Positions 3,368 through 35,888 of a stretch of 64,000 bases of DNA are shown here, piece by piece; the stretch's first letter is position 1, and each line of letters opens with the position of its first letter. The notes under the pieces are model-generated. The model made no database searches. It worked only from the letters and a program-made list of their open reading frames with translations, and was not told the DNA's origin. The stretch comes from Escherichia coli (lineage in GTDB: Bacteria; Pseudomonadota; Gammaproteobacteria; Enterobacterales; Enterobacteriaceae), in the NCBI RefSeq assembly GCF_044647545.1, contig NZ_CP172818.1. The stretch is one strand, 5' to 3'. The position numbers were made by a program, and so were the translations under genes.

Positions 3368-3432
3368 AAAAAAAGGGCCTAAAGCCCAGTTATTCTGTAG
3401 TCAGATAACAAAAAACCCCGATAAATCGGGGC
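3368..3432 (-). terminator. Two tandem hairpin plus U-run structures between metY and rimP (intra-operon terminators/attenuator)
   Basis: Minus-strand RNA: ccccgau-uu-aucgggg followed by uuuuuug (3410-3432), and a weaker gggc...gccc hairpin followed by U7 (3368-3387). Confidence 0.5.
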
Positions 3433-3556
3433 TTTATATAACTGAACCCTATAACCGCAACTGCGGTCTGGAGCACTTTCCAGAAGGATTTTTTCAAATC
3501 CCACTACGAAGGCCGAAGTCTTCACAGTATATTTGAAAAAGGACTCTAAGGGAAAG

Positions 3557-3633
<77 letters not shown>

Positions 3634-6957: not shown

Positions 6958-7371
6958 CCAGAAATCCAAGTTCACAACCAATATAAACAATTATCAACAA
7001 TGTTCAATTTTATATCAGACATGTTTTTCAACTCTGATCCATATCAGACCGAAACACTGTTAGTTTTTTCTTTTTAAATGATGCGGCCATTGTTCTCAGT
7101 AATTAAATAACATTATCAATGCGTCTCTAAACATTACGCAGAACGTAGCCATCAGTAGTTATACTGACAGGAGCAGGATGGTTTATCGAGAAGTAAACAT
7201 ATCCGTATTCGTACCGGAACTGGAGTTGACACAATAAAGTGCCAATTATGTCAGCAGAAGGGAAAAGTTTATAACTAAGGCGTACCGGCACCATCGTTTC
7301 AAGGTACCAGCTACGAGTAAAGCAACTGGACGAGATACAGATACCTGACAACCATTCCTCAGACCAGGACC

Positions 7372-7413: not shown

Positions 7414-7500
7414 TGGTACCGAGGACGGGACTTGAACCCGTAAGCCCTATTGGGCACTACCACCTCAAGGTAGCGTGTCTACCAATTCCACCACCTCGGC
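7414..7500 (-). tRNA. leuU: tRNA-Leu, 87 nt with long variable arm
   Basis: Reverse complement reads GCCGAGGTGGTGGAATTGGTAGACACGCTACCTTGAGGTGGTAGTGCCCAATAGGGCTTACGGGTTCAAGTCCCGTCCTCGGTACCA. Confidence 0.9.
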
Positions 7501-13513: not shown

Positions 13514-13537
13514 AAAAGGCCGCATAGCGGCCTTTTT
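13514..13537. terminator. Bidirectional rho-independent terminator between convergent yhbY and greA
   Basis: aaaa-ggccgc-ata-gcggcc-ttttt: GC stem flanked by an A-run and a T-run. Confidence 0.5.
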
Positions 13538-13580: not shown

Positions 13581-14057
<477 letters not shown>

Positions 14058-14149
14058 TTGTTATACCTCTTGAATATTCCTGATGGGGCAAGTCTTCACC
14101 CACCCCGGCTGTTCGGCCTGCCCGGCATAACTCCTCACCGGGACCAGAA

Positions 14150-14190
14150 GCAAAAAAAATACCGACCCGGGTACAGGTCCCAGGTCAGCT
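14150..14190 (-). terminator. graL: Terminator-like hairpin plus U8 in the greA leader (expected 3' end of the GraL leader RNA)
   Basis: Minus-strand RNA gaccugg...ccggguc hairpin followed by gguauuuuuuuug, about 95 nt upstream of the greA start codon. Confidence 0.4.
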
Positions 14191-14305
14191 ACAATTCACA
14201 TTTTGATAGTCATTTTACCCTGAAGTTCCCGAAGGGTCATCGTTTACTTTATAGGGCGTTGCGCCGTAGTATGACGGCTCGATTCCAGGTTGTTAGCGCG
14301 AGATT

Positions 14306-15739
14306 ATGCGATTTTCCAGATTTATCATCGGATTGACCAGCTGTATAGCGTTCAGTGTTCAGGCCGCAAATGTTGATGAGTACATTACTCAACTCCCCGC
14401 TGGTGCCAACCTTGCCCTGATGGTGCAAAAAGTCGGCGCGTCGGCCCCCGCTATTGATTACCACAGTCAGCAGATGGCGCTGCCCGCCAGTACGCAGAAA
14501 GTGATTACTGCGCTGGCGGCGTTGATTCAACTCGGCCCCGATTTTCGTTTTACCACGACGCTTGAAACCAAAGGTAATGTGGAAAACGGTGTACTTAAGG
14601 GTGACTTAGTAGCGCGATTTGGTGCCGATCCGACGTTAAAACGTCAGGATATTCGCAATATGGTCGCGACTTTGAAAAAATCTGGCGTCAACCAAATCGA
14701 TGGCAATGTGTTGATAGATACCTCCATTTTCGCCAGCCACGATAAAGCCCCCGGCTGGCCATGGAATGACATGACACAATGCTTTAGCGCTCCGCCTGCC
14801 GCCGCCATAGTTGACCGCAACTGTTTCTCCGTCTCGCTCTATAGTGCCCCAAAACCTGGTGATATGGCTTTTATACGCGTGGCATCTTATTACCCCGTTA
14901 CGATGTTCAGCCAGGTACGCACCCTCCCCCGTGGTTCTGCCGAAGCGCAATACTGCGAGCTGGATGTGGTGCCAGGCGACCTGAACCGCTTTACGCTGAC
15001 CGGATGCCTGCCACAACGTTCTGAGCCGCTCCCGTTGGCTTTTGCCGTGCAGGATGGTGCCAGCTATGCTGGGGCAATTCTGAAAGATGAGTTAAAACAG
15101 GCAGGTATCACCTGGAGCGGAACACTGCTACGCCAGACTCAGGTTAACGAACCTGGAACGGTAGTTGCCAGTAAACAGTCGGCCCCGCTGCACGATCTGC
15201 TTAAGATTATGCTGAAAAAGTCGGACAACATGATTGCCGATACGGTTTTCCGCATGATCGGCCATGCGCGCTTCAATGTGCCTGGAACATGGCGGGCCGG
15301 GTCGGACGCCGTGCGTCAGATCCTGCGCCAGCAAGCCGGTGTCGATATTGGTAACACCATTATTGCCGATGGTTCAGGGCTTTCGCGGCATAACCTGATT
15401 GCCCCCGCCACCATGATGCAGGTGCTGCAATACATTGCCCAACACGACAATGAACTTAACTTTATCTCTATGCTGCCGCTGGCGGGCTATGACGGCTCTT
15501 TGCAGTACCGTGCAGGTCTGCATCAGGCGGGCGTGGATGGCAAAGTCTCAGCGAAAACCGGCTCGTTGCAGGGGGTATATAACCTGGCGGGATTCATTAC
15601 CACGGCGAGCGGGCAACGAATGGCGTTTGTGCAATATCTTTCTGGCTATGCAGTAGAACCGGCGGATCAGCGTAATCGCCGTATTCCGTTAGTGCGTTTT
15701 GAAAGCCGTTTGTATAAAGATATTTATCAGAACAATTAG
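14306..15739 (+). CDS. dacB: D-alanyl-D-alanine carboxypeptidase/endopeptidase PBP4
   Basis: 477-aa ORF MRFSRFIIGLTSCIAFSVQAANVDEYITQLPAGANLALMVQKVGASAPAIDYHSQQMALPASTQKV... with signal peptide and STQK active-site motif. Confidence 0.9.
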   Translation: MRFSRFIIGLTSCIAFSVQAANVDEYITQLPAGANLALMVQKVGASAPAIDYHSQQMALPASTQKVITALAALIQLGPDFRFTTTLETKGNVENGVLKGDLVARFGADPTLKRQDIRNMVATLKKSGVNQIDGNVLIDTSIFASHDKAPGWPWNDMTQCFSAPPAAAIVDRNCFSVSLYSAPKPGDMAFIRVASYYPVTMFSQVRTLPRGSAEAQYCELDVVPGDLNRFTLTGCLPQRSEPLPLAFAVQDGASYAGAILKDELKQAGITWSGTLLRQTQVNEPGTVVASKQSAPLHDLLKIMLKKSDNMIADTVFRMIGHARFNVPGTWRAGSDAVRQILRQQAGVDIGNTIIADGSGLSRHNLIAPATMMQVLQYIAQHDNELNFISMLPLAGYDGSLQYRAGLHQAGVDGKVSAKTGSLQGVYNLAGFITTASGQRMAFVQYLSGYAVEPADQRNRRIPLVRFESRLYKDIYQNN

Positions 15740-35767: not shown

Positions 35768-35888
35768 GTGCGGCCTGAAAAACAGTGCTGTGCCCTTGTA
35801 ACTCATCATAATAATTTACGGCGCAGCCAAGATTTCCCTGGTGTTGGCGCAGTATTCGCGCACCCCGGTCTAGCCGGGGTCATTTTTT
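35768..35888 (+). ncRNA. arcZ: ArcZ (RyhA/SraH) Hfq-dependent sRNA, convergent with and overlapping the arcB 3' end
   Basis: Sequence GTGCGGCCTGAAAAACAGTGCTGTGCCCTTGTAACTCATCATAATAATTTACGGCGCAGCCAAGATTTCCCTGGTGTTGGCGCAGTATTCGCGCACCCCGGTCTAGCCGGGGTCATTTTTT, ending in a hairpin plus T-run. Confidence 0.8.

Follow-up and report, generated by a model that had tools for sequence, protein, structure and literature searches.

The greA leader of an Escherichia coli genome carries the known GraL terminator

Results and Discussion

The greA-dacB intergenic region and its RNA features

The DNA analyzed here (the window) is a stretch of 64,000 nucleotides from the Escherichia coli contig NZ_CP172818.1 (assembly GCF_044647545.1), in which the gene order ftsH, rlmE, yhbY, greA, dacB, obgE is the same as in strain K-12. 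The greA gene (13581-14057, minus strand; identified in the list of open reading frames) encodes the 158-amino-acid transcription elongation factor GreA; its DNA shows 100% identity to E. coli records annotated as greA and its position matches that of K-12 b3181. The divergent neighbour, dacB (14306-15739, plus strand; assigned from the list of open reading frames and E. coli records), bounds the intergenic region, which occupies exactly positions 14058-14305. A 551-bp stretch around this region is present in 5425 of the 5426 complete E. coli genomes, with 100% identity to many of them.

Directly upstream of greA, and on the same strand, lies a match to the Rfam family RF01769 ("Enterobacteria greA leader"; 14154-14275, minus strand, model positions 1-124 of 124). 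The covariance model scored 125.8 bits, the gathering threshold being 60 bits (E = 4.5e-24), and the match was recovered again in a scan of the whole window. In the aligned 281 nt between dacB and greA, only 4 differences separate the window from K-12 MG1655, in which this element, named GraL, was characterized by Potrykus et al. 2010 (PMC2836576) and Dylewski et al. 2019 (PMC6829880). The high covariance score and the near-identity to the K-12 element bear out the original prediction, made from the sequence of the window, that the greA leader contains a GraL-type leader RNA. The range given with it, 14058-14305, is the whole greA-dacB intergenic region; the hairpin itself is at 14189-14161. 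A search for a RefSeq annotation of GraL in K-12 and other E. coli records found no feature of any kind in the intergenic region.

Other RNA features of the window with Rfam scores above the gathering threshold are: (i) the small RNA ArcZ (35768-35875, plus strand), (ii) the rimP leader RF01770, which comes from the same survey of premature terminators as the greA leader (3368-3468, minus strand), and (iii, iv) two tRNAs (3560-3633 and 7417-7500, minus strand). Two candidates at the 3' end of greA, STnc420 and STnc540, were rejected, as they scored 20-21 bits where the gathering thresholds are 70 and 38, respectively; both correspond to the greA/yhbY terminator hairpin. This GC-rich hairpin of 10 bp with flanking A- and T-runs (13514-13536), located between the convergent genes greA and yhbY, is probably a shared bidirectional terminator.

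Two overlapping promoters and the GraL transcripts

A promoter scan placed the sigma-70 promoter P1 of greA at 14212-14240 (minus strand), with the -35 element ATGACC (14240-14235), a 17-nt spacer and the -10 element TAAAAT (14217-14212). The sigma-E promoter P2 (14202-14229, minus strand) was assigned from the consensus GGAACTT-N16-TCNAA, with GGAACTT at 14229-14223, a 16-nt spacer and TCAAA at 14206-14202. The motifs of P1 and P2 overlap, their starts are 11 nt apart and the sequence in this part is the same as in K-12, for which the start sites and the sigma dependence of both promoters were published.

Several landmarks reported for K-12 were used in mapping, i.e. the greA AUG at +150 from P1, initiation of P1 at ApU, initiation of P2 at ApA 11 nt further downstream, the hairpin region that was swapped in the published constructs (+19 to +48), the terminator (+19 to +47) and the end of the U-rich tail (+59). 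Placed from the AUG position and ApU initiation, the P1 +1 is A14207 (minus strand); the P2 +1 is A14196 (minus strand). All of the published coordinates could be transferred exactly to the window (14207 and 14196 for the two starts, 14189-14160 for the hairpin region and 14148 for the end of the tail), so that the comparison with published GraL positions that had been proposed as a check came out in full agreement. With the K-12 coordinates (+1 to +48..+59), the P1 form of the GraL small RNA would span 14148-14207 (minus strand) and the P2 form would begin at 14196. Since the lengths are taken over from K-12, the 3' ends of GraL in the window would be expected over approximately 14158-14148.

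The terminator hairpin and its release tract

The terminator hairpin (14161-14189, minus strand) was found by a terminator scan, by minimum free energy (MFE) folding and by RNAalifold. It comprises a 5' arm (14189-14179), the loop ACCUGUA (14178-14172) and a 3' arm (14171-14161). According to the terminator scan and the MFE fold, the stem has 11 bp, with 7 G-C and 3 G.U pairs, and the loop has 7 nt. On the minus strand the element reads GCUGACCUGGG-ACCUGUA-CCCGGGUCGGU-A-UUUUUUUU-GCUU; the terminator scan reported the 11-bp stem followed by ATTTTTTTTG. The release tract (14148-14160, minus strand), delimited by the sequence and its alignment with K-12, consists of A, U8 and GCUU, where K-12 has A, U7 and GCUU: a single A at 14160 separates the stem from the T8 run (14159-14152), after which GCTT follows. 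The arms of the stem are the same as in K-12, and the intrinsic terminator as a whole lies at +19 to +59 from P1.

The earlier description of this element as a 7-bp hairpin followed by eight U residues was correct in part. The segments GACCUGG (14186-14180) and CCGGGUC (14170-14164) do pair, with one G.U, but they belong to a functional stem of 11 bp, and published work shows that with a stem cut from 11 to 7 bp the relative termination efficiency is ~4-fold lower (PMC2836576). The eight U residues are present in the window at 14159-14152, but an A intervenes between them and the stem and the K-12 reference has seven. The distance of ~95 nt to the greA start was accurate, as the last U of the tract and the A of the ATG (14057) are 95 nt apart.

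In a 48-nt segment the hairpin folds with a free energy of -19.6 kcal/mol and accounts for 74% of the ensemble. Dinucleotide shuffles (n = 200) gave -9.9 +/- 2.4 kcal/mol (z = -4.0), and none of the 200 was as stable as the native hairpin. This bears on the simplest alternative, namely that a functionless inverted repeat lies by chance beside a T-run. Terminator-like matches do arise by chance, at an expected 1.3 in the 1.1-kb region scanned, but a hairpin of this stability relative to its shuffles, a stem conserved with compensatory changes across 53 species (see below), and termination and release shown biochemically in the K-12 publication all speak against such an origin. The chance reading is thus already refuted by the present evidence and may be regarded as having practically no probability.

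Conservation of the terminator across the Enterobacteriaceae

For the comparative analysis, greA loci were collected with a degenerate DNA pattern covering the first seven greA codons, using one genome per species; this anchor was chosen to avoid selecting for the hairpin. The scan yielded at least 120 loci. Among the matches listed, 55 encode genuine GreA proteins (79-100% identical), and 65 were chance matches outside the Enterobacteriaceae, which were dropped after a check for the GreA open reading frame. All genuine GreA loci among the matches listed are from Enterobacteriaceae, with the exception of one (Aliagarivorans). Leaders from 52 other species among the matches listed were aligned with that of the window (n = 53), each taken as the transcribed stretch that begins at the P1 +1 and ends at the ATG.

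Without guidance, RNAalifold predicted the same 11-bp terminator stem from the 53 leaders. Standard pairs fill 98.8% of the 570 cells of this stem, and two-sided changes occur at 6 of the 11 pairs (26 cells). None of 500 column shuffles reached the pairing, the compensatory-cell count or the covariation score of the terminator, and pairing dropped to 25-56% when the 3' partners were slid by 1-3 columns. A stretch of 9 nt after the stem contains 7-8 U in all 53 leaders, and the median hairpin energy is -18.3 kcal/mol. The loop exists in 38 different versions, in contrast to a near-invariant promoter geometry: the P1 -35 and -10 elements are each conserved in 52 of 53 leaders and the 17-nt spacer in 53 of 53, while P2 has the 16-nt spacer in 53 of 53 and TCAAA in 51 of 53. 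Two types of tail were distinguished, A-U7/8-G in Escherichia, Citrobacter and Salmonella, and UUUUCUUUU(U)G in most other genera. RF01769 scored above its gathering threshold in all 17 Enterobacteriaceae loci tested (68-130 bits).

Three further observations were made in these leaders. The motif GCUUCUG after the U-run is 95% conserved in the 53 leaders. As the bases right after the U-run (UUUGCUUCUG, 14146-14155, minus strand; 95% conserved in 53 species) are more conserved than the hairpin arms, the alignment suggests that sequence constraint may act on the release region or on the first bases to be read through. In Mangrovibacter (loci L023, L065 and L086), an extra G+C-rich hairpin with a T6-7 run (…GUCCGGGGCGUUUUUUUAUAAUGAGG) is located ~10-40 nt upstream of greA, immediately before the Shine-Dalgarno sequence, and is possibly a second, tandem terminator-like element. 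In the single outgroup locus, Aliagarivorans taiwanensis L041, a search of the greA leader with RF01769 gave no match; an unrelated 10-bp hairpin with T7 is present ~45 nt upstream of greA (7274-7305, plus strand), which fits the idea of independent leader terminators upstream of greA outside the Enterobacteriaceae.

The upstream stems of the Rfam model lie in promoter DNA

The survey of premature terminators that underlies RF01769 (Naville and Gautheret 2010) reported "a clear antiterminator structure" in greA leaders, and in the Rfam consensus three stems, which the window matches, precede the terminator. Both facts favour a switchable attenuator, or a riboswitch-like leader, in which an upstream antiterminator competes with the terminator. 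That survey, however, examined a stretch of at most 200 nt 5' of every predicted terminator and lacked transcription-start data. In the window, the three stems are located at 14275-14205, i.e. upstream of or across the P1 +1 (14207), where they overlap the -35 and -10 elements and are absent from transcripts initiated at P1 or P2. Among 53 species, none of the 15 pairs in these stems has changed in a compensatory way, all variants being one-sided and pair-breaking (e.g. C.T in 30 of 53 at 14234-14229). Moreover, the transcribed 5' 36 nt fold at only -0.2 kcal/mol, compared with -18.9 kcal/mol for the terminator, and termination was published to be constant through growth. As stems in untranscribed promoter DNA that lack covariation do not constitute an antiterminator, this model was rejected, and a switchable leader is considered very improbable.

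When formation of the 3' arm was forbidden, a search of the 36 nt preceding it found no better alternative fold. Given this result and the near-zero folding energy of the same segment, the element is a leaky terminator without a built-in alternative fold, which agrees with the constant termination through growth.

The 5' 71 positions of RF01769 (14205-14275, minus strand) correspond to promoter DNA upstream of or across the P1 start. The model thus takes in ~68 nt of untranscribed promoter DNA, and only the part from 14207 onwards is transcribed from the mapped promoters. Judged from the alignments, its structure annotation and the published "antiterminator" look unsupported.

The read-through leader

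Directly after the terminator tail, MFE folding predicted hairpin 2 (CCCGG...CCGGG; 14121-14142, minus strand). Most genera have a hairpin here as well, formed by quite dissimilar sequences, and the architecture of the read-through leader is a recurring one. Hairpin 3 (GGGGUGGGU-GAAG-ACUUGCCCC; 14085-14106, minus strand), in which 14106-14098 pairs with 14093-14085, was obtained both by MFE folding and in the RNAalifold consensus. Across the Enterobacteriaceae leaders, it shows compensatory change at 7 of 7 pairs and is 86.4% paired; none of 500 shuffles reached its pairing or covariation score, and slid controls reached at most 66%. Hairpin 3 is outside the Rfam model RF01769 and is not discussed in the two GraL papers (PMC2836576, PMC6829880). 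Over its full 168 nt, the leader did not fold significantly better than its shuffles (z = -1.48), and the folding results therefore support the individual hairpins only, and no global fold.

Since autoregulation was published to persist when the leader past +59 is deleted, hairpin 3 is not needed for autoregulation by GreA. Hairpins 2 and 3 (14142-14085) could, tentatively, form a second conserved RNA module at which the P3/P4 5' ends arise by processing and which sets the stability or translation of greA mRNA apart from the GraL/GreA loop; this proposal, together with a separate effect of the allele described below, we regard as doubtful. The "P3/P4" primer-extension ends were considered post-transcriptional by their authors, and a link between them and hairpin 3 is speculation.

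The Shine-Dalgarno sequence of greA, AGAGG (14066-14070, minus strand), is recognizable by sequence 8 nt before the ATG, and its GAGG is invariant in 53 species. The leader also contains a ten-codon open reading frame, MPGRPNSRGG* (14096-14128, minus strand), 2 nt behind GAGGAG; the SD-like run before it forms the loop of hairpin 2, and K-12 has an even better SD-like sequence, TAAGGAG, at this place. The existence of this frame, with a strong Shine-Dalgarno-like sequence in the window and in K-12, invites the idea of ribosome-mediated attenuation through a leader peptide. However, the frame lies downstream of the terminator, over which it can therefore exert no control, and only 18 nt precede the terminator stem. 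Its start codon is not conserved (GUG in E. albertii, absent in other genera), and for this reason the short frame at 14128-14096 is probably not coding. Nowhere in the leader is conservation lower than in the region of this frame (41-55% identity), yet the hairpin is still formed. Autoregulation, too, was published to remain intact after deletion of everything past +59. No conserved open reading frame was found upstream of or overlapping the terminator, the sole short one being downstream with a start that is not conserved; the leader-peptide model was rejected and its probability is judged to be even lower than that of the switchable leader.

A rare allele of the terminator

Four single-nucleotide differences distinguish the leader of the window from that of K-12: (i) C14176 in place of U in the loop of the terminator hairpin, (ii) one extra U in the tract (U8 versus the published A-U7-GCU2), (iii) G14136 in place of A in hairpin 2, and (iv) C14085 in place of U, by which a G.U at the base of hairpin 3 becomes G-C. 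Of 5426 complete E. coli genomes, 110 contain an exact copy of the 60-mer with the loop C and U8, which makes this a rare allele, and 5107 contain an exact copy of the 59-mer of the K-12 allele (loop U and U7). A further 86 genomes match the loop-C 60-mer with a 1-nt gap, presumably representing the loop C combined with U7; as homopolymer length is error-prone in some assemblies, these allele counts need care. This natural U7/U8 polymorphism sits in the very tract where termination was published to be imprecise. The U8/loop-C allele could shift the efficiency of GraL termination or the pattern of its 3' ends, and hence the GreA set-point of the lineage.

Published behaviour of GraL and the proposed mechanism

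The evidence obtained in this analysis comprises identity to a characterized element, Rfam membership, hairpin thermodynamics, promoter and terminator conservation, and covariation; start sites, termination efficiency, short RNAs and GreA dependence are taken from the K-12 literature. Termination at GraL amounts to ~66% in vivo, as determined by comparing lacZ fusions that contain or lack the terminator, and to ~60% in vitro (Potrykus 2010, PMC2836576), so that the expectation that most transcripts stop before greA was correct. The resulting RNAs of 40-60 nt form two clusters, of ~55 and ~45 nt, by Northern blot and in vitro (PMC2836576). Further published work in K-12 showed that their 3' ends are scattered over 10 nt, that short chains are released from immobilized templates, and that the degree to which termination is imprecise depends on the three lowest base pairs of the stem.

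An autoregulatory loop, which had been considered plausible because GreA itself modulates termination and pausing, was likewise already in print. GreA represses its own synthesis ~3-fold, for which the leader/GraL sequence in cis and catalytically active GreA are required (PMC2836576, PMC6829880). According to the published K-12 work, a greA-lacZ fusion is derepressed ~3-fold on greA deletion, and the repression is promoter-independent, tracks GraL abundance and does not require the leader past +59. Deletion of greA lowers GraL ~4-fold and GreA restores its level; Hfq, Nus factors and sigma-E were excluded as mediators. Purified GreA was without effect on termination in vitro and autorepression was not reproduced with purified components, hence the loop needs an extra factor or is indirect. 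In trans, the reported target of GraL is nudE, and overproduced GraL improves fitness in a sequence-specific manner.

These data can be combined with the features of the window in the following mechanism. The sigma-70 promoter P1 (14207) and the overlapping sigma-E promoter P2 (14196) would fire into a leader without competing RNA structure. RNA polymerase would transcribe the 11-bp G+C-rich hairpin and A-U8-GCUU and release about two-thirds of the chains at several adjacent positions, giving GraL RNAs of roughly 40-60 nt, and the remaining third would read through ~95 nt of structured leader into greA. More GreA in vivo would lead to more GraL, less read-through and roughly 3-fold autorepression; this would require that GreA be competent for cleavage and that GraL be present in cis with its native sequence, the promoter and the downstream leader being dispensable. 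Released GraL would also act in trans, with nudE as the reported target. By analogy, the rare U8/loop-C allele is expected to behave like that of K-12.

The same published data were weighed against a reading in which the terminator is only a constitutive "damper" on the output of two strong promoters, with GraL as an inert by-product and GreA acting indirectly through global changes in transcription. In its favour, termination does not respond to GreA in vitro, the efficiency of termination does not change over growth, GraL is barely detectable by Northern blot at single copy, and a scrambled GraL retains residual repression in late growth. Against it, GraL drops ~4-fold in the greA deletion and is restored by GreA, and scrambling of the GraL sequence with the terminator structure kept abolishes or strongly reduces repression, which is promoter-independent. 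The fitness gain from GraL overproduction depends on its sequence, and the unpaired 5' segment and the GCUUCUG after the U-tract are conserved beyond the needs of a bare terminator. We therefore consider a mere damper unlikely, although it deserves more weight than the other alternatives, and conclude with high confidence that the hairpin with its U-tract is the E. coli GraL terminator, a leaky terminator in the leader of greA that acts in GreA self-repression.

GreA acts globally in transcription fidelity and against arrest, and its level must be tightly held. The GraL terminator is a known device for holding this level and also the source of a trans-acting small RNA. Because the original prediction had already named GraL, and each part of its interpretation is already in print, the present result is the correct recognition of a known element and not a discovery. 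The rediscovery of GraL from raw sequence indicates that leader terminators are recognizable in this way and adds nothing to the biology.

Comparison with known systems

The closest relative of the element is GraL of K-12, with which it shares the locus, the promoters, the sequence of the 11-bp stem, the tail composed of A, a U-run and GCUU, and the distance to greA; the two differ in four single bases of the leader (C14176, U8, G14136 and C14085). The greA leaders of other Enterobacteriaceae (Enterobacter, Klebsiella, Kluyvera, Citrobacter, Salmonella and others) have the same promoter geometry and the same position of the 11-bp stem. Outside Escherichia, Citrobacter and Salmonella, however, a C interrupts the tail, which reads UUUUCUUUU(U)G instead of AU7-8G, and both the loop and the upper part of the stem are different, with compensation.

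Among other leaders from the survey that reported the greA leader, those of rnk and rimP (RF01770) likewise have a conserved intrinsic terminator between a promoter and an open reading frame related to transcription or translation, and some of the survey leaders have been proposed to be trans-acting RNAs as well; in sequence, the rnk and rimP leaders are unrelated to the greA leader. A parallel to GraL was also drawn with the SAM riboswitch SreA of Listeria (PMC6829880), a terminated 5' leader fragment that, like GraL, combines control in cis with action in trans. Unlike SreA, GraL has neither a ligand-binding aptamer nor an alternative fold, and its effector, GreA together with a further factor, enhances termination rather than relieving it.
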